NCBI GenBank assembly: GCA_030649735.1
Contig: JAUSFL010000023.1
Span: 15,698 to 79,697, forward strand
Source of the DNA: Candidatus Iainarchaeum sp.
Lineage (GTDB): Archaea > Iainarchaeota > Iainarchaeia > Iainarchaeales > UBA10191
DNA length: 64,000 nucleotides
Reading direction: 5' to 3'
Shown: positions 37,197 to 61,510 of the stretch, piece after piece
Layout: the number at the start of each line of letters is the position of its first letter
How positions within the stretch are numbered: position 1 is the stretch's first letter
Program-made: the position numbers and the translations under genes
Notes under the pieces: generated by a model
What the model saw: the letters and a program-made list of their open reading frames with translations, nothing else
Told to the model about the DNA's origin: nothing
Database searches by the model: none

Positions 37197-38012
37197 ATGG
37201 GCCAGAAAGTTGTTGCAGTTATTGCAGCGCATAATGAGGAAGTTTCAATTCAGGACACTTTGGAAATCCTTAATTCTTTCAGGCAAAAAAGGCTGCTTGA
37301 TGAAATTGTGGTTGTGAATGACGGCAGCACTGATAGGACTGCTGAGATTGCAAGGCGTTTTGGCGCTGTTGTTGCAAGCCATTCAAGAAACCAGGGAAAG
37401 CGGGCTTGCTTTATTACTGGCGCTTTCAAAGCAAGGGAGCTTGGCGCTTCCACAATGTTTATGCTTGATGCGGACATCATGGAATTCCCGGAACAAACTT
37501 TCAGGAAAATGGTTTCTTCAGTGACTAGTGAGGGAAAGCTGATGGCAATTGCGCAGCAGTTTGAGGAATCGCCCAGCCCTAAGGAAGTCCTTGACGGCGT
37601 TTCGCATTACAAAGTCAATAACTATCATTCTAATGCCCAAAGGGCTTTTAGCATTAGTGCATTGGAGCCATTGTTTAGGAACAACAAGAAGTGGGTTTCT
37701 TTGCTCACTTCAAAGGCTCATAAGTTCTTGACTCGTACTGAAAAGGCTGCTGGCAGCAAGTGGGGCCTTGAGTTTGCGTTGGACTATTTGATTCCCGCAG
37801 GAAAAGCTGTCTTTCTTCAGGAATTTCCTGTTTGCACTAGGCCTGCTTTCAGGAAGAATTCCAACCATGGAATGGTGCAAGAGCAGGGCAGGGGAATTGT
37901 GAAAATGAAAATGGCTGAAAGGAAGAATGCCGCGAAAAAGCTTTGGAGATTAAGGGCGAGAAAAAAATTTGCCAAAAGCCCAAGGCATGTTGTTTTGAAA
38001 AGGCCGCTTTAG
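37197..38012 (+). CDS. family 2 glycosyltransferase (GT-A fold) with a basic C-terminal tail
   Basis: VAVIAAHNEE...VVVNDGSTD...LDADI (DxD) pattern. Arg/Lys-rich C-terminal ~35 aa. Confidence 0.75.
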   Translation: MGQKVVAVIAAHNEEVSIQDTLEILNSFRQKRLLDEIVVVNDGSTDRTAEIARRFGAVVASHSRNQGKRACFITGAFKARELGASTMFMLDADIMEFPEQTFRKMVSSVTSEGKLMAIAQQFEESPSPKEVLDGVSHYKVNNYHSNAQRAFSISALEPLFRNNKKWVSLLTSKAHKFLTRTEKAAGSKWGLEFALDYLIPAGKAVFLQEFPVCTRPAFRKNSNHGMVQEQGRGIVKMKMAERKNAAKKLWRLRARKKFAKSPRHVVLKRPL

Positions 38013-39676
38013 ATTTTCAATTCCTTGTCTTGCTCGAAAGAAATGCCTTTCTTTAACGCGATTTCTGCCTTTTGCAGTTCTGTTCCAAGGTACATTGCGT
38101 GGCTTCCTTGCATGCTGATGTCGTTTGAGATTCTGGAGTACAGTTCTTTTGCAGTCTTTCCGCCCCACATTCTTAATGCCTGCGAGCTTTCAGGATGCAT
38201 TAAAGTGCATGAAATTTCTTCGCCTTTTAATTCCACGAGAAAGTTTCCTTTCGCATCTCTAAAGTCCTTGCGTGGTTTTCTGTAAAGCTTTAGGGCTGTT
38301 TCAACCTGCTGGTAGTAGTTGTTGTAGATTTGCGCGCTGCTTGAAATTATTATCAATAATCCGCAAGGCACTTTGATTGCTTCCGCAATTTCTTTCTGGA
38401 TTGCGGCCATTCCGTAGGCGTTTTCAGGCCAGCCTTGAACCATGTCATGGCTTCTGAAATAAACTGTTAAATTCAATTTTTCGTCCTGGACCATTGCCTG
38501 AATCATCACTAAGCAAGGAGAGCTCTTGTGCTTTCTTAAAAGCTCGTCTGCGGGATGCCATGTCACTGCAACAATCGCTTTTGAGTAAGGGTCGCGCTTT
38601 AAGGTTTCAATCATGTCTTTCACTTGATTTATTTCCGCTTTTTCCCCGTTGAATTTCACGTTTTCGAGAATGAATTCTCCCTTTCCGAACTCGAAGTTTT
38701 GGATTGCGTCATTTTCCAAAAGTTCTTTCAGTTCCTTGCTTGAAGGGCTGTAGTAAGCGCGGAGCTTGTTTCCGTAAGTGTATGCCTTTCCTGCTGGCAG
38801 TTCTGGCGAAAGAATTTCTGACTGGTATGCGCGGATTTTTTCAACAGTCAATGGAATCAGGAATGGATTCAATGACAAGTCCATGTTTTGCGCGTCTTCA
38901 ATAACGCACGCCATGTTGTTTATTTCCTTCACCCAGCGGTCAGTATTCGCGTTCATCAGGTTTTTTCTTCCGTAAGTGTAAATTGCGTGAATCATTTCCA
39001 GCCAGGTTTCAGGAATTGTTTTCCCCTGAACCAGTAAAGGCCCGCCTTCGAAAGGCAGGCTTTCACCCATTTCTTCAAACGCAAAAACCACTGGATTTTC
39101 CAAGAATACCTTTTTCTTTTCCAATGTTTTCAAAAGCTCATTTGCTCTTTCAATTTTTTCATCCAATGATGCATTGGGCATTTCAGAGTTCAAATCTATC
39201 AATTGCACGTTTTCCGAGACTTTTTGAATCATTCCTGTGGGGATGTTCTTGTCAAAGTAAACCGCGCTTTCAAATCCTGGAATTTTTCTTTCGCCAGTAA
39301 TTCCTTGCTTGAAAAACGCGCGGATTGCGTTAGCGCTTGTCACTTGCTGCAGGCCTTGGTTGTTTGGGGAAGCGCAGGCATACTCGTTGCCGAGCATTAT
39401 CATATAGCGTATTTGCGGGTTTGCAAGTAAATTCCTGACCATTCCCGCAAGCCCTGCTGGAGTGTAAAAGTTTGTCGCGATTGCAAGGTTTTCTTTGGAA
39501 AGCTTTGGCATTATTACATCACGCATTGTCCAGAGGAAAGTGACTGAGACTTGCGCGTCATTAAGTTCTGCGTCTTTTCCGACAGCGAACGAGACCCTGT
39601 CTTTCACAACCACTGGCCAGCCTTTGCCTCCAGTGCTGTCTTTCTGGTTTTTTATTTCATCAATCAATCCAGCCAT
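38009..39676 (-). CDS. thymidylate synthase (ThyA-fold) homolog with a ~220-aa N-terminal extension
   Basis: C-terminal half has SSPCLVMIQAMV (catalytic Cys region), LTVYFRSHDMVQGWPENAYGMAAIQ (RSxD...G.P.N) and SSAQIYNNY. N-terminal ~220 aa unrecognised. Confidence 0.6.
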   Translation of the reverse strand: MAGLIDEIKNQKDSTGGKGWPVVVKDRVSFAVGKDAELNDAQVSVTFLWTMRDVIMPKLSKENLAIATNFYTPAGLAGMVRNLLANPQIRYMIMLGNEYACASPNNQGLQQVTSANAIRAFFKQGITGERKIPGFESAVYFDKNIPTGMIQKVSENVQLIDLNSEMPNASLDEKIERANELLKTLEKKKVFLENPVVFAFEEMGESLPFEGGPLLVQGKTIPETWLEMIHAIYTYGRKNLMNANTDRWVKEINNMACVIEDAQNMDLSLNPFLIPLTVEKIRAYQSEILSPELPAGKAYTYGNKLRAYYSPSSKELKELLENDAIQNFEFGKGEFILENVKFNGEKAEINQVKDMIETLKRDPYSKAIVAVTWHPADELLRKHKSSPCLVMIQAMVQDEKLNLTVYFRSHDMVQGWPENAYGMAAIQKEIAEAIKVPCGLLIIISSSAQIYNNYYQQVETALKLYRKPRKDFRDAKGNFLVELKGEEISCTLMHPESSQALRMWGGKTAKELYSRISNDISMQGSHAMYLGTELQKAEIALKKGISFEQDKELKI

Positions 39677-52741: not shown

Positions 52742-53077
52742 TTATTTTTTTGCGACTGCTTTCAATACTTCTTGCTTCAGGCTTTTGCAGCTTTCCTGCA
52801 GTGCTGAAATGAAATTCCATTCAGTTGCTGTTGAGACAATTTTTTTCTTTGGCGCGATTATCCTGCAGTGGACTTCGTACTGCTTGCGCGCGCCTTTCTT
52901 GTTTTTTTGCCCGAATTCCTTGGCTTGAATTGTCATTTCGAATTCTGGAAGCACGTTGGAGATTTTTTCAAAATTTTCCTTTACCGTGCTTAATGCAGTC
53001 AGTTCGTCAATTTCATCCAATTCCGGAAAACCCAGCAGTTTTATGCCGTTTTCTTGAGAGAATTTTTTCAAAGCCAT
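52742..53077 (-). CDS. hypothetical protein with possible HPF/RaiA (ribosome hibernation factor)-like fold
   Basis: About 111 aa. Its hydrophobic/basic periodicity resembles the beta-alpha-beta-beta-beta-alpha fold of HPF. Similarity is weak and judged by eye only. Confidence 0.35.
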   Translation of the reverse strand: MALKKFSQENGIKLLGFPELDEIDELTALSTVKENFEKISNVLPEFEMTIQAKEFGQKNKKGARKQYEVHCRIIAPKKKIVSTATEWNFISALQESCKSLKQEVLKAVAKK

Positions 53078-53143: not shown

Positions 53144-53413
53144 TTATTTTGCCTTGAACGCAAAATGAATGTATGCAAAGAGCACAATCAGCACTGCCAG
53201 GAAGAAATAGCTTAATGGCGCCGGAATGAAGTTTATTGCAGGGTCCACCCAAACGTAAATTCCTGCTGCTATCAGGAACACTATCAATATTTGGCTAAAG
53301 TACTTGAAGACCGCGCGCGGGTTTTTTATTTTCAGCGCTTTTTCAATTGCCTTGTTTCTTATGCGAAGGCCTATTTCCAGATTTTTTGCCCTGATTTTTT
53401 TCATGGCGCCCAT
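53144..53413 (-). CDS. small membrane protein (2 TM), unknown
   Basis: 89-aa ORF with two hydrophobic helices. Overlaps the downstream gene start by a few nt. Confidence 0.45.
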   Translation of the reverse strand: MGAMKKIRAKNLEIGLRIRNKAIEKALKIKNPRAVFKYFSQILIVFLIAAGIYVWVDPAINFIPAPLSYFFLAVLIVLFAYIHFAFKAK

Positions 53414-53417
53414 TAAT

Positions 53418-55601
53418 TCACCCGTTTAGCGTCCAGCCAGTGGCTGAATTGCAAGTGTAGCTTTCGACAATTTGCGCGTTTGCAGCAAGCACGCACGTTG
53501 GGGCAGTGCATGCGGTGCTTCCGCAGGAATAAATGCTTTTTGCAGAGCACAGTATTTTTGCCTTGTCCGGGCTGTTGTCTGCTGAAAGCGGATAATTGTT
53601 TGTGACCATGTTTCCCAAGTAGCAGCAGTCAGTGCCTTGGTAATTGTTTTTTATCTGGCTTGGATTGCATGCCTCGTTTAAAGTTATTTCCTGGCTGATT
53701 GGGATGCCAAGCATTAGTTTTAGCTGCATTTCTTGAGGGGCAAATTGTCCTGAATTGTCTGAGATAAGCAAAGTGTAGTTTCCTTCAATTACTGGGTCAA
53801 ATACCGCGATTCCTGTTTCGCTAGTAAAGAATGAACTGTAATAATCCGCGGGGTTTTTGAAAAGCACTGCGCTGATGTTTGGCAGCAGGTTTCCGTCAAA
53901 TGATTTTATGGTGATTGTTACTGTCGAGTTTCCAGTGGCCGAGCAGCTTGCGCTGTTGAAAAGGCAGTCGCATTTGTTTTTGAAGCTGCTGCCGTTGATT
54001 TTGGAGCAGGCCTCTTGCTTGCTTGTTTTTTTTGCGAAAGTGTAATAGCAGTCGTCAGGCTTGTCGAATGCACCAAGCTGGTAGACTGCGCCCACTGGAA
54101 GAGTTGCGCAGAGTGAATCGTTTGACCTTGCAGCCGCGACATTTCCAAAGCATTTTGGCTTGTTTGACGCAAAATAAAGGATGTCGCAGATTTTTTCGTC
54201 AGTTTTCAGGCCCGCAATTTCTGAAACGCAGCTGTCGTTTCCCGGACCGTATGTTTCAAGCTTTTCAGTGCTGTTTTTTGCCTCGAGCAGGATTTCACTG
54301 CAGTATTTTTCGTCAATTTGGGCTATTGCTGTTTGCGAATGGCAGTTTATTTTCTTTATCTTGTCATTAATGAACTTGCAGTAATCCGTGGTTTTTGTGT
54401 TTTTTGAAGCGTTCAGGATGCAGTCGTCCTTCAATTCTTGCGTGATTATTTTCGTGCACGTGTTTGCGTCATTGATGGCAGTGTCATTGTAGCACTTGTC
54501 TGAAAGGTTTTGGTCGCTTGAAATGCTGTCGCAGATTGAAGCCGTGGTTTTTATCACTGCAAGGTTGTAATAGCAGTTGTTTTTTTCAGCGGGCTGGCTT
54601 ATTTTTGGGCATTCGCTTTCATTTTCAAGCAAGTTTGCAATTTGGTTGATGCATGCGTCCCTTGGCTGCTGGCTTGAGATTGAATAGCAAAGGTCGGTGT
54701 TTTTTTCTTTCACCGCGAAAGAATTGAAGCATTCGTCTCTTTTCACGCTGCTGGCTATTTTGCCGCAGTTTTCGGAAGTTTCCTGCGCTAATGCGATTTC
54801 ATTGATGCAGTCGTTCTTTGACTGCGCGTTTTCTATCTGCTGGCAGCTGTCAATTTTTTTCAATGCCCTTGCGATTTGGTAGTGGCAGGAGTCTTTTTTT
54901 TCGCTGTTTGTTATTGAACGGCAGTATTCTTCGTTTTGGCTGCTTGATGCCGCGTTCAATATGCAGTCGTCTTTTTCTGCAGTGCCTTTCAGCACATTGC
55001 AGGTTTCGGGGCTTTTTGCCTGCTTGGTTGTTTCTGCAATGCAGCTTTGCCTTGCTGTTTCATTGGTTATTTCTTCGCAGGCCTGCAAATTTCCTGTCTG
55101 TTGCGCTACTATTGAAATGCAGTTTTCTTTAATGTCAATGCTTGAAACAAGCTTGCATGTTTCAATGTCTTTTGCCGCTGTTGCCGCCTGGTTTAGGCAA
55201 TTGTCCCTGTTTTCGGCATTTTCCATTTTCAGGCAGGCTTCCTTGCTTTGCGGGTTTGCAGTGAAAATGATGTTGCAGCTGTCTTTCACTGTTTGGGAGC
55301 TTATTTTGCCGCAATAGTTTTGGTCATTTTTTGCAGTTGCCAGTGCTTGAAAGCATGAGTCTTTTTTGCCTGCTGTTGCTATTTCACTGCAGCTTTCAAT
55401 TCCAGTGCTTGCAAGGCTTAAAAGGCAATTTTCCTTGGTTAGCTGTGCTGGGAGGGATTTGCATTCTAAAATCAGTTCTGCAGGCGTTTTTACGGGCGGT
55501 TTTTTCTTGGTGCATCCTGAAATCGCTATTCCGACAATTAGCAAGGCAAAAATTGCCAGCGTCAGCTTTTTGTTCAACTGCATTAGTTTATTACATTCCA
55601 T
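53418..55601 (-). CDS. secreted lipoprotein composed of ~14 tandem 26-aa two-cysteine repeats plus a C-terminal beta-sandwich-like and Cys-rich region
   Basis: Signal peptide with lipobox (LLIVGIAISGC). Regular C-x11-C-x13 periodicity, e.g. GKKDSCFQALATAKNDQNYC / TVKDSCNIIFTANPQSKEAC. C-terminal TVTITIKSFDGNL...GNYTLLISDN domain. Confidence 0.75.
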   Translation of the reverse strand: MECNKLMQLNKKLTLAIFALLIVGIAISGCTKKKPPVKTPAELILECKSLPAQLTKENCLLSLASTGIESCSEIATAGKKDSCFQALATAKNDQNYCGKISSQTVKDSCNIIFTANPQSKEACLKMENAENRDNCLNQAATAAKDIETCKLVSSIDIKENCISIVAQQTGNLQACEEITNETARQSCIAETTKQAKSPETCNVLKGTAEKDDCILNAASSSQNEEYCRSITNSEKKDSCHYQIARALKKIDSCQQIENAQSKNDCINEIALAQETSENCGKIASSVKRDECFNSFAVKEKNTDLCYSISSQQPRDACINQIANLLENESECPKISQPAEKNNCYYNLAVIKTTASICDSISSDQNLSDKCYNDTAINDANTCTKIITQELKDDCILNASKNTKTTDYCKFINDKIKKINCHSQTAIAQIDEKYCSEILLEAKNSTEKLETYGPGNDSCVSEIAGLKTDEKICDILYFASNKPKCFGNVAAARSNDSLCATLPVGAVYQLGAFDKPDDCYYTFAKKTSKQEACSKINGSSFKNKCDCLFNSASCSATGNSTVTITIKSFDGNLLPNISAVLFKNPADYYSSFFTSETGIAVFDPVIEGNYTLLISDNSGQFAPQEMQLKLMLGIPISQEITLNEACNPSQIKNNYQGTDCCYLGNMVTNNYPLSADNSPDKAKILCSAKSIYSCGSTACTAPTCVLAANAQIVESYTCNSATGWTLNG
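54250..55420 (-). repeat. in-frame tandem coding repeats of ~78 nt period (the 26-aa Cys-repeat array)
   Basis: Periodicity is visible at the protein level across residues ~60-450 of the lipoprotein. Several spurious antisense ORFs stack over it. Confidence 0.6.
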
Positions 55602-55717
55602 GCCTTTAAAAAATTTGCCTCAAAAAGCCGGCTTTGGTTAGGTTTTTACCTTACCAAAAAGAAAACAATATTTAAATAGCAAGAGAATATTGTTAGTTGT
55701 GTGGGGGTTTTTCTAAA

Positions 55718-58579
55718 ATGGACAGTAAAAAATTTATCATATTATTCGCTGCCTTGATTTTTTCAGCGGGCTTTGCCTTGGCTGTTGATTCAAACGGTTC
55801 CGATTCAAACTCAGACAAGCCTGTTGCTTGCATTTGCACAATGGAGTACGCGCCAGTGTGCGGTTCTGATGGGAAAACCTATTCTAACGGTTGTGTTGCA
55901 AAATGCGCCGGAATAATTGATTTTAAGCCAGGCGCCTGCAATGACTCAATTCCTGAAGTGATTTATCCTTCATTTGGGGTTGACTTCAAGCTTTTCCAAA
56001 CCCAAACTGCTGTTTTGGAGAATTATAAGATTGCCCTCGCAAAAATTCTTGTTCCTATAGAAGTGCAATGCGTTGATGGCGTTTGCCCAGAAATAGCTTC
56101 ACAAGTCCAAATTATTTTGGAAGTCAGCAAAAAGTCTGACAATGGCTATGTTTCTGAAAAGGCTTACTTGGGAGAATATTCAGAGGCCGGCCTTTTAGGA
56201 ATCAAAATCCAGTCACGCGGTATAAATTCAGTTTCGGGATATGCTGTCTTGACTGTTTTCAAGGAAAACATCATGCCAGAGCCAATCAAAGCAGCTCTTG
56301 GCGAAGAATTCAAGCTTTTGCAATTGCAGCAAGCCAACATCCAGGATAACGGAAGCACTGCGATGAAGCTTGTTCTGGAAAGAATTGACAACTTGCACAT
56401 TGTGTGCATTAAGGCGCCTTGCCCGAATTATTCTGCAGTAATGACTGCAAGCATTGCAAATGACGGAATGTATTCTTTCAAAGTCCTTAATGGCTCCAGC
56501 TATTTCCTTGGAAATTACGTTGTTAACTTTACTTCCACTGACGGGACTTCAGGAAAGTTTGTTGTAAAGAAAATTTCAGACACTAACACAACTCCAGCAG
56601 ACATTTATGTCAATGTTGATGAATACTTCAAGCTTGTCGAAAGCCAGACAGCAATCTTTAAGACTGGGGAATTTTCAGTGACTCTTGCAGGCGTTGAAAA
56701 TACTGCAACATGCAGTGCAATAGGCTGTCCGCCTTCACAGTCAGTAGTAAAGATAGGCATAAATTCACTTAATGGGCTGCTTGGAAGCTCTTTAGTTACT
56801 TTAAAACAAGGCGAGAGCGCTGAAAGAAATGGCTTTTCAATAACTGTCGTGGGAATTGATTTTTCGGGAAAGACCGCAAAGTTTGTGATTTCAAAAATCC
56901 AGGAAAACCCTGTAGAAAAGACAGTTTATTTGAATGAAAAATTCAAGCTTGCTGAGAAGGAAAGCGCCCGCGTGTTAAGCGGTAATCAAAGATGCCCTCA
57001 AGGCGCAACCTGCATTGCGAGCGCAATGCCGGCGCGCGAAATAATGAAAATTAAGCTCTTGTCAATTAGCCAGTACAAATGCGCTGAAACCAGCACTAGC
57101 GGAGTTTCAGTGAAATGCATTGGAAGCAAGCCTTTTGCAAGAGTTGTGCTAGGCTATGAAGATGGCAATATTGGAACGGCAACTGAAACAACAATTAGTG
57201 AAGGCGGAAGCATCTGGTTCAATGGATTTGAAGTGAACTTGCTTGATGTTTCATTGCAAGCCCCAAATTCTGGAGTTTTCATTGTAAGGCAGCCGAGCAT
57301 TCCTGAATACATTAAAGCAAGCTTGGATGAAAAGTTTGAATTGAATCTATTAAGTTCTGGAGCAAATACTGCATTGATTGCTGGAGAGGGAATTTTTGTA
57401 AAGCTTGAAGGCCTTTCAAACGAATGCGTTCAGGCGCGTGCTGATGCCGGCAACCCACGTTATGCAAAAGTTTCAGTGTGGAAAGAATCTGACAATGCAT
57501 CGCAAGGATTTGGAATCAATGTTGGCGAGTCATTGAGCATTTACGGCCTGAAATTAAGCCTTTTGGGGACTACTTGCGGAAGCGCAATTTTCATTGCGGC
57601 CAAGGATTCAAACCCTGAAGTCATTAACGTGCATGTCGGAGAGCCTTTCAAATTGCAGAAAGACAAGGCTGCAAGGGTTTTAGAGGCAAACTTGAGGATT
57701 GATGTATTGAATTTGATTAATGTCTGCGCAAGCTGCGCTTCAACTTCTGACTCAAATGCGGTTGCATCTTGCGTTGGCGGGCTTTGCTATTCAAGCGTGC
57801 AATTCAGCGTGAGCAATTATGCATTCGAGCAGTCAAAGATTGGAACTACAGTCAGCACTACAGTAATAAACAGCACTACGGTTTCAACAACCGAGTCAAA
57901 CAGCACTTCAAGTGCTAGTAGTAGTGGCGGCGGTTCAGGAAGCGCTTTTATTGAAATTCCTCCAATGCCTTGGAAGACTTTCACTCTTTCAGCCGGAGAA
58001 AGCACTGAAGTTGGAGACTTTGAAATCAGGGTTTTGAATGTTAGTTCTGAAAGCGCTGAGTTTGAAGTCTTGAAAAAATCCACCGGGCAGTCCTTCAATT
58101 ATGTAATTAAGGCTGGCTGGAACTTGTTTTCAGTCCCTGGGAAGATTGATTCCGGAAGCAATAATTGCGAGAGCGGCAATTTCAAGCTTTTCGAGTATGA
58201 TTCAGCAGCAAAGAAATTCAATAGTGTTTCAGAGCCTTCTCCAGGAAAGGCATACTGGCTTTTTAATTCTGGAAAGTCTTGCGAAGCAAAGGCGACAATC
58301 AGGGATGCCGTTGCATTAAGCGGCCTGCCTTCCTTGAATGCCGGCTGGAATTTTGTCGCAATAGTTCCTGAAATGCTCGGAAGCAAAATCAGCGGGCTTG
58401 GGAACTGCAAGTTCAAGAGTGCTTTCTCTTGGAATGCTTCTTCAAAAATCTGGCAGAATGCATTGAACAAGAAGTTGGCAAGTGAAGACTTAGGGAGCGC
58501 AATTGTTGTATTCTCTGAAGGCGCTTGCTCTTTGGCGGGCGCTGTGGAGACTCAGCCCCCAATGCCTCCGAGCCCTTGA
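55718..58579 (+). CDS. large secreted protein with an N-terminal Kazal-type domain and six ~105-aa internal repeats, a Ser/Thr-rich linker and a C-terminal domain
   Basis: Signal peptide MDSKKFIILFAALIFSAGFALA. Kazal motif CICTMEYAPVCGSDGKTYSNGCVAKCAG. Repeat units begin I..xxxxExFKL (DFKLFQTQ, EEFKLLQLQ, EYFKLVESQ, EKFKLAEKE, EKFELNLLS, EPFKLQKDK). Ends QPPMPPSP. Confidence 0.75.
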   Translation: MDSKKFIILFAALIFSAGFALAVDSNGSDSNSDKPVACICTMEYAPVCGSDGKTYSNGCVAKCAGIIDFKPGACNDSIPEVIYPSFGVDFKLFQTQTAVLENYKIALAKILVPIEVQCVDGVCPEIASQVQIILEVSKKSDNGYVSEKAYLGEYSEAGLLGIKIQSRGINSVSGYAVLTVFKENIMPEPIKAALGEEFKLLQLQQANIQDNGSTAMKLVLERIDNLHIVCIKAPCPNYSAVMTASIANDGMYSFKVLNGSSYFLGNYVVNFTSTDGTSGKFVVKKISDTNTTPADIYVNVDEYFKLVESQTAIFKTGEFSVTLAGVENTATCSAIGCPPSQSVVKIGINSLNGLLGSSLVTLKQGESAERNGFSITVVGIDFSGKTAKFVISKIQENPVEKTVYLNEKFKLAEKESARVLSGNQRCPQGATCIASAMPAREIMKIKLLSISQYKCAETSTSGVSVKCIGSKPFARVVLGYEDGNIGTATETTISEGGSIWFNGFEVNLLDVSLQAPNSGVFIVRQPSIPEYIKASLDEKFELNLLSSGANTALIAGEGIFVKLEGLSNECVQARADAGNPRYAKVSVWKESDNASQGFGINVGESLSIYGLKLSLLGTTCGSAIFIAAKDSNPEVINVHVGEPFKLQKDKAARVLEANLRIDVLNLINVCASCASTSDSNAVASCVGGLCYSSVQFSVSNYAFEQSKIGTTVSTTVINSTTVSTTESNSTSSASSSGGGSGSAFIEIPPMPWKTFTLSAGESTEVGDFEIRVLNVSSESAEFEVLKKSTGQSFNYVIKAGWNLFSVPGKIDSGSNNCESGNFKLFEYDSAAKKFNSVSEPSPGKAYWLFNSGKSCEAKATIRDAVALSGLPSLNAGWNFVAIVPEMLGSKISGLGNCKFKSAFSWNASSKIWQNALNKKLASEDLGSAIVVFSEGACSLAGAVETQPPMPPSP

Positions 58580-58635: not shown

Positions 58636-58860
58636 ATGCAAGGAAGTCGTGAAATGAGAAAGTTTTTTGTTTTAGGAATTGTTTTGCTAGTGTTTTCTTT
58701 GCTGTTTTTGAGCGGCTGCGCTGAGCAAAAAATAGGGCCTGGCGTTGACAATAATTCAGCGAGCAATCCAGGCAATGCGACCGGCGCTGCTTCAAGCATT
58801 CCAATGCCTCCGGCAAACCCTGAAGAAGGCAATGCTGAAGTTCCAATACTGCCGATTTGA
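58636..58860 (+). CDS. small secreted lipoprotein, unknown
   Basis: MQGSREMRKFFVLGIVLLVFSLLFLSGC has an LSGC lipobox. GGAG lies 8 nt upstream of the ATG. Tail contains IPMPPANP, cf. the PMPP at the end of the Kazal protein. Confidence 0.5.
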   Translation: MQGSREMRKFFVLGIVLLVFSLLFLSGCAEQKIGPGVDNNSASNPGNATGAASSIPMPPANPEEGNAEVPILPI

Positions 58861-59811: not shown

Positions 59812-60585
59812 GTGTTTGAGAAAAAAAAAGAGCAAGCAAAGAAAGAAGATCCTAAAGAAAGCCCAGAGCCTAAAAGAATAACAATTGAAGAAGCTGTTGA
59901 AGACAACAAGGCCTTAATTGAGACTTTGCAAAGGCTTCAGGCAGACTTTGAAAACTTCAAGAAACGCGAGGAAAAAAACCGCGAAGAGTTCTCAAAATTC
60001 TGCACTGCAAGCATTTTCTTTGACCTGCTGGAAATAATGGATTCTTTTGAAAGCGCAATGCAAAAATGCACTCCAGACCAAAACGAGGCGTTAGAGCCGT
60101 TGTATTACCACTTGAAAAAATTCCTTGAAAAAAACAACGTAACCCAGTTTTCGGCATTGAATGAAATGTTCAATCCAGAACTGCATGAAGTGCTGCTTAC
60201 AGGATACAATTCCTACAAGGACGAAAACATTGTCCTGGAGGAAATAAAGAAAGGGTATTTTGTTTTTGACAAGGTCTTAAGGCACGCGCAAGTGAAAATA
60301 AACCAAAGGCCAGTGAAAAAAATCGAGGAAATAAAAAAAGAGCTAAAGGACCAATTGAACAAGCTTTCAGGGACTGAAGCAAGCGCGAAAAAAGAAAGGG
60401 AAGAGCAAAAAGGCAAGGACGCTGTTGCAGACAAGCTGTTCTCCAAAGAAAGCGCTTCTCCGCAAAATGAAGCAAAAGAAAACCAGCAAGCCAAAGAAAG
60501 CAATTCTCAAAATTCAGGCAATAATACTTCTCAAAAGGAAAGCAATTTGAATCCAGAAAACGGGGGTTCTCAAAATGCAAAATAA
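59812..60585 (+). CDS. grpE: GrpE nucleotide exchange factor with a low-complexity K/E/S/N-rich C-terminal extension
   Basis: LQADFENFKKREEKNREE (GrpE DNxRKR region) plus a conserved C-terminal beta-domain (GYFVFDKVLRHAQVKI). Tail QQAKESNSQNSGNNTSQ. Confidence 0.85.
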   Translation: MFEKKKEQAKKEDPKESPEPKRITIEEAVEDNKALIETLQRLQADFENFKKREEKNREEFSKFCTASIFFDLLEIMDSFESAMQKCTPDQNEALEPLYYHLKKFLEKNNVTQFSALNEMFNPELHEVLLTGYNSYKDENIVLEEIKKGYFVFDKVLRHAQVKINQRPVKKIEEIKKELKDQLNKLSGTEASAKKEREEQKGKDAVADKLFSKESASPQNEAKENQQAKESNSQNSGNNTSQKESNLNPENGGSQNAK

Positions 60586-61510
60586 TTTTAATACTCTGCA
60601 CGATGCTAATTTTGATTTAATCAATCAAATACAAAAAATCAGGGTGAATGGGAATTTGCAGACAATGCGAAAGCAAATAGGCTCTGAAAACTTAAAATCT
60701 CTATTAATTGCTTTCTACCCCAAATATAATATTACTGAGATTCAGGAAATTATTGGAGTTCCTGACTCTACTGTTGAAAGATGGCTCAAACAATTAGGGG
60801 TTGAATTAACGCGAAATCATATAACTAACTTAGTAGTTCCAGCAAATTTTGAAAGTTCTGTAGTTTTAACTGAAAGAAGCAAATCAACAAAAATTTCTGC
60901 AATAACTATTGATGAAGGTTTGTCTTATTTAGTTGGATTCTGCATTGGGGATGGTTCTGTGCAAAAATTCTGTATCGAAGTGTTCAATAAGGACTCTGGG
61001 ATGAAAGAGCATCTGGCTCAAGTAATGAAAAGGTACGGAAAAGTAGGCGAAAGCATAAGGCAAAATGGTTTGTGGAAGTTGAGATTATCAAGTGTGAAAA
61101 TAGCTGATTTGATAAAAAGAAATAAATCTATCAGACAAGATACTATTGATTATATTCTAACAAATGACAAATTAGCACGCCAGTTCTTGGCTGGGCTTTG
61201 GGATGCTGAAGGGAGTGTTCTCAAGCAGGGAAAATATTTCCACATTTACTTATATAATTCGGATAAAAACCTAATAGACAATATTTCAGAGTTTTTGAAT
61301 TCGGTCGGAATTGAAAATTCAATTATTCCCATGAAAAAAAGAAATAAAGAATATAATCTAAACGGAAGAATAATTGTGCCAAGAAAAACAGTTTATCGTC
61401 TTGGAATCCCTAAAAAGCATTTTAAACAATGGGGTGAACTGATTGGCTTGCACTTAAAACACAGTAAAAAAGCAATTATGGTTAAAGAAATTTTGAAGGG
61501 GGATTGTTAA
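60575..61510 (+). CDS. free-standing double-motif LAGLIDADG homing endonuclease (mobile element) between grpE and dnaK
   Basis: Two LAGLIDADG motifs: LSYLVGFCIGDGSV and FLAGLWDAEGSV. N-terminal HTH-like segment (ITEIQEIIGVPDSTVERWLKQLGV). Overlaps the grpE end by 11 nt and abuts the dnaK ATG. Confidence 0.75.
   Translation: MQNNFNTLHDANFDLINQIQKIRVNGNLQTMRKQIGSENLKSLLIAFYPKYNITEIQEIIGVPDSTVERWLKQLGVELTRNHITNLVVPANFESSVVLTERSKSTKISAITIDEGLSYLVGFCIGDGSVQKFCIEVFNKDSGMKEHLAQVMKRYGKVGESIRQNGLWKLRLSSVKIADLIKRNKSIRQDTIDYILTNDKLARQFLAGLWDAEGSVLKQGKYFHIYLYNSDKNLIDNISEFLNSVGIENSIIPMKKRNKEYNLNGRIIVPRKTVYRLGIPKKHFKQWGELIGLHLKHSKKAIMVKEILKGDC

Follow-up and report, generated by a model that had tools for sequence, protein, structure and literature searches.

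The stretch of DNA analyzed here (the window, 64,000 nucleotides of a Candidatus Iainarchaeum contig) contains, at positions 53418..55601 of the minus strand, a gene for an exported protein whose cysteines recur with a period of 26 residues, and it raises the question of what a Diapherotrites (DPANN) archaeon would do with such a molecule. The best overall explanation, which we regard as fairly probable, is that the product is a lipid-anchored, disulfide-stapled rigid stalk displaying a C-terminal head. We hold the description of its architecture with good confidence; the assignment of a stalk-plus-head function is a tentative one.

The protein contains 50 cysteines (6.9%), and the region from C47 to C544 is a two-cysteine helical repeat array of 19 units (53970..55463, minus strand), detected by a local repeat hidden Markov model (HMM) with an E value of 1.2e-54 over 16 domains. 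Over C71-C434 the successive cysteine gaps alternate between 12 and 14, save for one 13/12 unit, and perfect C-x11-C-x13 units of 26 residues occur 14 times. A reading of the letters made before this work (the sequence-only reading) had claimed a strict periodicity with about 14 perfect repeats; exactly 14 were counted, against a maximum of 2 in 20,000 residue shuffles of the protein. The most regular run (54303..55391, minus strand; residues 71-433) holds 13 of the 14 perfect units and has a single interruption, the unit at C357 with its 13/12 spacing. In five more units the loops differ in length (12/12 for the one nearest the N-terminus, then 13/12, 24/14, 20/14 and a last 12), and a small C546-x6-C553 loop comes after the array. 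The extent first proposed, residues ~60-450, is to be corrected to residues 47-553. As for the unit itself, the consensus computed for the lineage of the window, C-x2-I-x5-[KR]-D-x-C-[YIL]-x2-[VIL]-A-x4-[ND]-x3, agrees with the pattern KDSC[IYF]xx.A that had been put forward.

Tandem Repeats Finder detected no DNA-level tandem repeat in the gene, and the DNA identity between units averages 45% and does not exceed 56%, implying that the array is old and diverged and not a recent or unstable expansion. Its length is also conserved: in P0002, the ortholog encoded at the related locus L001 (~34% identity), the 39 cysteine gaps through the array are identical to those of the window protein, with the 24- and 20-residue loops at matching unit positions, so that the number of units, whose possible variation had been raised as a question, is the same in both. 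A recent tandem duplication, or a repeat number varying between strains, was rejected on these grounds. The window holds only one copy of the repeat protein.

Structure models give a shape to this periodicity. For the full-length protein, AlphaFold2 (with an alignment of only four sequences) gave a predicted local distance difference test (pLDDT) score of 80-95 over residues 40-555 and built one long and one short helix in each 26-residue unit. A ten-unit model (residues 71-330) reached a mean pLDDT of 90.5 and a predicted template modeling score of 0.72; in each of its regular units a 15-residue helix occupies unit positions 7-21, with Cys-13 in mid-helix, and a helix of 4-6 residues at positions 24-3 bears Cys-1. 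The proposal of a solenoid or rod of helical hairpins is thus supported by the models (pLDDT 90), while its disulfides derive only from the pairing statistics described below. Foldseek returned no match to the repeat model at E<=1e-3, with template modeling scores <=0.30, and the nearest natural folds were TPR, PPR and Sel1 proteins.

The design of an exported, disulfide-tethered helical-repeat solenoid is already known. In the Hcp subfamily of Sel1-like repeat (SLR) proteins, disulfides between neighboring helices lock the superhelix (PMC3851747), and the window protein, like Helicobacter HcpB (1KLX) and HcpC (1OUV), would be an exported alpha/alpha solenoid with a cysteine pair, here predicted to form a disulfide, in each repeat. 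Its period of 26 residues nevertheless differs from the 36-44 residues of the Sel1-like repeat, and the Sel1 HMM (PF08238) matched neither the target at E<=1 nor ten relatives at E<=0.1. Compared with TPR, PPR and designed helical repeats, there is no sequence match, the unit is shorter, the helices are unequal and the cysteine pairs are obligatory; nor were TPR (34 residues), LRV (24 residues, PF01816) or HEAT-like repeats indicated by an HMM match with the characteristic length. Neither Pfam-A nor NCBIfam had a model matching the repeat region, whether of the target (E<=1) or of ten diverse relatives (E<=0.1). Against PDB sequences, phmmer with the repeat protein gave only spurious LRR matches (E 0.005), and a 104-column repeat profile gave 0 matches at E<=10. 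The repeat, which the sequence-only reading did not recognize, therefore matches no curated family or solved structure. What is new is the 26-residue unit of one long and one very short helix, its sequence family, and the architecture composed of lipobox, solenoid, beta-sandwich and Cys-rich tail, none of which is covered by such a family or structure.

A 52-column double-unit profile (A1), built on the window protein plus the first three of its homologs, was searched against 1.84 billion cluster representatives (50% identity). This metagenome search, which had been suggested beforehand, found 7,020 protein clusters at E<=1e-3, 2,500 at <=1e-10 and 188 at <=1e-30. We surveyed 151 family proteins, namely the best 150 of the 7,020 matches plus P0003, the product of the related locus L002; 147 of them are full-length. 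Their cysteine gaps are dominated by 14 (1,852 occurrences) and 12 (1,571), a hydrophobic N-terminal segment is present in 141/147 full-length members, and 1,134 perfect units yield the consensus C-[ED]-K-I-x-D-x3-[KR]-D-x-C-Y-x2-[VIL]-A-x4-[DN]-x2-[LI], which the target fits. The conserved unit residues are nearly all core or capping residues, and the surface positions vary freely across the family. All named sources are DPANN: Diapherotrites (P0001, P0045), Iainarchaeum (P0004), Micrarchaeota (P0017) and Altiarchaeota (P0029, P0044). P0010 lies on an 853-kb contig among archaeal genes such as Hjc, NurA, HerA, EF-1beta and Rpr2, and P0005 has FKBP26 of archaeal type as its neighbor and DsbD_TM ~6 kb off. 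P0020, which carries DUF5667, adjoins bacterial-type rpsL and rpsG and is for this reason taken to be bacterial; P0115 is GC-rich and adjoins a Ser/Thr kinase with TPR repeats. Judged by these sequences, the two-Cys 26-residue repeat is a large cross-domain family, found in DPANN and in at least one bacterium, predicted to be almost exclusively extracytoplasmic and absent from curated libraries. Used in word-index homology searches, the repeat alignments A1 and A4 found nothing, the index being ill-suited to short diverged repeats. No relatives emerged either when genome collections were scanned with A3 and with a degenerate DNA pattern of two units, which matched twice by chance.

A subfamily of ~900-970 residues with an N-terminal transmembrane segment (P0018, P0064, P0084 and P0143) was also seen, in which two two-Cys repeat blocks flank a conserved non-repeat center (..LAE[KQ]ALNxFL..GHR[VI]YIEDYL..). 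The neighbors at the P0018 locus, such as PDZ and RRM proteins, look bacterial.

How the cysteines are paired is central to the idea of a rigid rod. In the within-unit register (C1-C13) all 40 cysteines of C47-C553 pair with their sequence neighbor and 0 are left over, whereas the alternative C13-C1' register orphans C47 and C544, ~500 residues apart. A gap of 9-13 residues precedes the first 14-residue gap in 119 of the 151 family proteins and comes after the last one in 136, so the arrays are bounded by complete C1..C13 pairs; the number of cysteines beyond the signal peptide is even in 117/151. Moreover, the 12-type gap is the more variable in length (exactly 12 in 64%, vs 80% exact for the 14-type gap), as expected of a loop closed by a disulfide. 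Most likely, then, the two cysteines of each unit form a within-unit disulfide that would staple the short helix to the long one, giving 19 staples and the C546-C553 loop.

Several points nevertheless weaken the case for this pairing. A co-loss analysis gave no pairing information, because both cysteines are kept in all 1,606 scored units, and the secondary-structure positions alone do not tell C1-C13 from C13-C1' pairing. The window holds no convincing thiol-disulfide oxidoreductase motif in a scan for [WFY]CxxC only. Finally, the habitat may be anoxic: DPANN are often found in groundwater or sediment without oxygen, conditions that favor disulfides less. The same invariance of two cysteines per unit, lack of an oxidoreductase motif and anoxic settings would suit cysteines that act as metal ligands (Fe, Zn, Ni, Cu) or redox centers, the 40-Cys ladder serving as a metal binder, an extracellular thiol buffer or a sulfide-handling surface. 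We find this very unlikely. Co-ligand motifs of the His, Asp or CxxC type are missing from the repeat consensus, and a tetrahedral site could not be built from the two thiols of a 26-residue unit unless a neighboring unit contributed. Structural disulfides are classically recognized by cysteines that are paired and even in number, with complete pairs at either end. In addition, one related archaeal locus (that of P0005) has the DsbD_TM gene 6 kb away, and the MdbA/VKOR disulfide machinery is enriched in genomes of the candidate phyla radiation (CPR) (bioRxiv 10.1101/335083). Binding of haem or of Fe-S clusters was rejected as well, the consensus being without CxxCH or CxxC.

A stapled rod on the cell surface would require export and anchoring. 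The longest open reading frame (ORF; stop codon 53418-53420) exists as first read and encodes 727 residues, but its six N-terminal codons are probably untranslated; translation would then begin at M7 (ATG at 55583), the probable start, and yield 721 residues. This is where P0001 begins, a 'hypothetical protein' (Q7R70_03440) from an NCBI metagenome-assembled genome of a Candidatus Diapherotrites archaeon that is identical to the ORF product; the alignment of the ortholog P0002 also begins there, and a conserved box stands upstream. This TATA-like box, TTTTTTAAA (55605..55613, minus strand; TTTTTAAA box at 55605-55613), is located 22-30 nt upstream of the M7 ATG and is common to the window and its relative L001. 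Such a distance is the expected spacing of an archaeal TATA box for a leaderless mRNA. The divergent intergenic region (55584-55696) has the same length in the window as in L001, exactly 113 nt, and keeps two AT-rich boxes, the second being the palindromic TATTTAAATATT at 55667-55678; the TATTTAAATATT and TTTTTAAA boxes are probably the two TATA boxes of a divergent gene pair.

From M7 to the lipobox I-S-G-C30 (55512..55583, minus strand), the N-terminus reads MQLNKK / LTLAIFALLIVGIA / ISG, followed by C30, that is, the positively charged n-region, hydrophobic h-region and lipobox (..AISG, then C30) of a lipoprotein precursor; a lipobox signal peptide had been noticed before. The lipobox is defined as [L/V/I]-3 [A/S/T/V/I]-2 [G/A/S]-1 C+1, and in DPANN predicted lipoproteins are prevalent and the candidate lipidation enzyme AliA (arCOG02177) is present 'with some gaps' (PMC12462473). 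The motif is kept as LASGC in P0002 and as LFSGC in P0003, and we consider the repeat protein probably an exported, lipid-anchored cell-surface protein. Were the N-terminus instead a membrane anchor that stays uncleaved, or a signal peptide of the ordinary kind, the product would be a type-II membrane protein or a fully secreted one, with no lipidation and with the remaining architecture unchanged. Such an N-terminus would agree with the occurrence of a lipobox-like ..[GAS]C within the first 45 residues in only 83/147 full-length family members, plain hydrophobic N-termini being found elsewhere, with the Ala at position -3 of P0002, off the lipobox consensus, and with the experimental proof of archaeal lipidation, available only in Haloferax (PMC12462473). 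We think it improbable, since all three positional orthologs, at no more than 25-35% identity, keep the cysteine straight after S-G, and the motif of the window protein fits the published lipobox exactly.

The solenoid is followed by a head of two parts, both of which the sequence-only reading had recognized. The first, at residues ~557-640 (53682..53933, minus strand), is a transthyretin-like or CarboxypepD_reg-like beta-sandwich: residues 561-640 were modeled by AlphaFold2 as a seven-strand beta domain, at a moderate pLDDT of 60-80, that superposes on members of the CarboxypepD_reg/transthyretin-like family, with many CnaB/pilin domains listed beside them. By sequence the likeness is sub-threshold, PF13620 (CarboxypepD_reg) scoring E 0.23 and 12.2 bits vs a gathering cut-off of 32.3 bits. 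The second part is a tail with 10 cysteines (residues 645-727; 53421..53669, minus strand) that has no family match. Its cysteine spacing (14, 1, 25, 8, 5) is identical in P0002, and all 10 cysteines are kept in the closer relative L024 (82.6% identical), with a ratio of nonsynonymous to synonymous substitution rates (omega, dN/dS) of 0.35 for the tail. A pattern of the C-terminal Cys motif matched 77 metagenome stretches, of which only L024 was real.

The surroundings of the gene belong to the core genome. One flank carries RpoE/Rpb7, aIF2-gamma, aIF5B, Rce1-like, Kae1 and ZIP genes, the other a MarR-type helix-turn-helix gene and grpE-dnaK-dnaJ, and the gene order is common to three related loci: L001 (P0002, ~34% identity), L002 (P0003, 25%) and L024 (85% DNA identity to the window). 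Over the C-terminal 161 codons the comparison with L024 gave dN 0.109, dS 0.43 and omega 0.25, comparable to the flanking genes (0.05-0.20), from which we conclude that the gene is intact and under purifying selection; the disruption of the ORF that would have spoken against the sequence-only reading was not seen. By this synteny it is a conserved core-genome gene. A mobile element or defence island was rejected, the surrounding genes being core archaeal housekeeping genes (Kae1, S27e, RpoE, aIF2-gamma, aIF5B, DnaK operon).

Two neighbors deserve attention as possible partners. An 89-residue protein with two transmembrane segments and no family match (53144..53413, minus strand) starts 4 nt past the stop codon of the repeat protein. 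In the window, L001, L002 and L024 such a protein of 88-101 residues, with the motif DPxxNx[IL]PAPxxY, is always directly downstream (<=4 nt or overlapping), which suggests co-transcription and makes it probably an operon partner. On the other side, the divergent pairing with a Kazal-domain protein claimed earlier was found again: a secreted multi-domain protein of 960 residues (55697..58579, plus strand) carries a Kazal serine-protease-inhibitor domain at its N-terminus (residues 42-70, 36.5 bits). Its secreted ortholog in L001 (4735-7887, minus strand; ~1,000 residues, 47% identity) has no Kazal domain; its C-terminus is instead an inhibitor of cysteine proteases of the chagasin type (Inhibitor_I42, E 3.9e-12). 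On one and the same secreted multi-beta-domain scaffold, inhibitor modules of different kinds are thus swapped in at opposite ends. Two loci have both the head and the divergent neighbor, whereas L002 lacks the neighbor and its P0003 lacks the beta-sandwich and Cys-tail head, a weak hint, from three loci, that head and neighbor belong together. A metagenome scan with the neighbor-protein alignment A7 found nothing.

Together, these data lead us to propose the following course of events. The protein would be exported through the Sec pathway, its signal peptide cleaved and the mature chain anchored by a lipid at C30, after which a short Lys/Pro-rich linker would lead to the 19 copies of the 26-residue unit. 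During oxidative folding each unit would form a short helix (Cys-1) and then a 15-residue helix (Cys-13), and the units would stack into an alpha-solenoid rod that the disulfide staples may render rigid and resistant to proteases and heat outside the cell. Such a rod could keep the transthyretin-like beta-sandwich and the knot-like 10-Cys tail away from the membrane, as a stalk or spacer presenting a binding head, with the giant secreted protein of the conserved divergent gene as its probable partner and the 89-residue membrane protein probably co-expressed. Some results count against this function: the tail (residues 644-727) was modeled at pLDDT<50, the co-occurrence of head and neighbor rests on three loci only, and orthologous units are 29% similar vs 21% for paralogous units, a difference that gives little sign of unit-specific binding sites.

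This last comparison bears also on the idea that the solenoid itself is the binding element, its concave groove accommodating a partner such as a polysaccharide, an unfolded peptide or a component of the host-cell surface in the manner of TPR or Sel1-like repeats, so that the protein would serve as an adhesin or receptor. This possibility, which overlaps with the lipid-anchored stalk, draws on the TPR, PPR and Sel1 proteins as nearest natural folds and on the highly variable unit surface across the family. Besides, the secreted, disulfide-tethered Hcp proteins of Helicobacter are host-interaction factors with TPR-like peptide-binding grooves (PMC3851747), and large Cys-rich extracellular CPR proteins have been proposed as attachment mediators (PMC4736985). 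We nonetheless consider it unlikely: the conservation of core and capping residues with free surface variation, the figures of 29% vs 21% and the fixed number of units are easier to reconcile with a stalk or spacer whose length is set than with a series of specific binding sites, and the head is the likelier interaction module.

A bolder version of the stalk would make it the membrane-anchored component of a two-component DPANN envelope, analogous to SlaB and SlaA: the 19-unit solenoid would set the width of a pseudo-periplasm, and the head would hold the divergently encoded canopy protein of ~1,000 residues with its interchangeable Kazal or chagasin module. More broadly, the repeat might then be an envelope-building module of small-celled DPANN and of some bacteria. 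We regard this as a distant prospect. SlaB (8qox_B), the stalk of the two-component S-layer of Sulfolobus, has a C-terminal transmembrane anchor, a coiled coil and beta-sandwiches, in contrast to the N-terminal lipobox anchor and alpha-solenoid rod of the window protein, and the two are unrelated in sequence. The genes of the pair in the window are transcribed divergently and do not form an operon, and nothing points to a lattice made by the 960-residue neighbor.

Other features of the region are worth recording. Just downstream of the Kazal protein, an ORF of ~68 residues (58654-58860, plus strand) has a clean lipobox signal peptide (MRKFFVLGIVLLVFSLLFLSG, then C), and an 82-residue gene with a similar lipobox comes after the neighbor ortholog in L001, the likeness of the two lying in the signal peptides only. 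The most conserved gene of the block (52742-53077, minus strand; syntenic in the window, L001 and L024) encodes a 111-residue protein with no Pfam match that shows 94.6% identity in L024 and an omega of 0.05. Between grpE and dnaK lies a free-standing LAGLIDADG homing-endonuclease ORF of 311 residues (60575-61510, plus strand; LAGLIDADG_3, E 3.5e-16); because grpE directly adjoins dnaK in L001 and L002, it seems to have been inserted into the chaperone operon. Farther away, a 555-residue ORF (38009-39676, minus strand) adjoining thymidylate kinase is an unusual fusion of an MtrA-like N-terminal region, a thymidylate-synthase domain and the pterin-binding DUF4346.

No known principle is overturned by the repeat protein. 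In DPANN archaea and CPR-like bacteria, however, attachment and exchange depend on the cell surface, most of whose proteins are unannotated; a definition of this repeat family, whose ~7,000 clusters are covered by neither a Pfam nor an NCBIfam model, would provide an annotation for thousands of envelope proteins now called 'hypothetical'. A very short (26-residue) disulfide-stapled alpha-solenoid would also join the catalogue of repeat folds and might find a use in protein design, and the gene is a concrete case on which the anchoring of archaeal lipoproteins and the architecture of the DPANN envelope could be tested.

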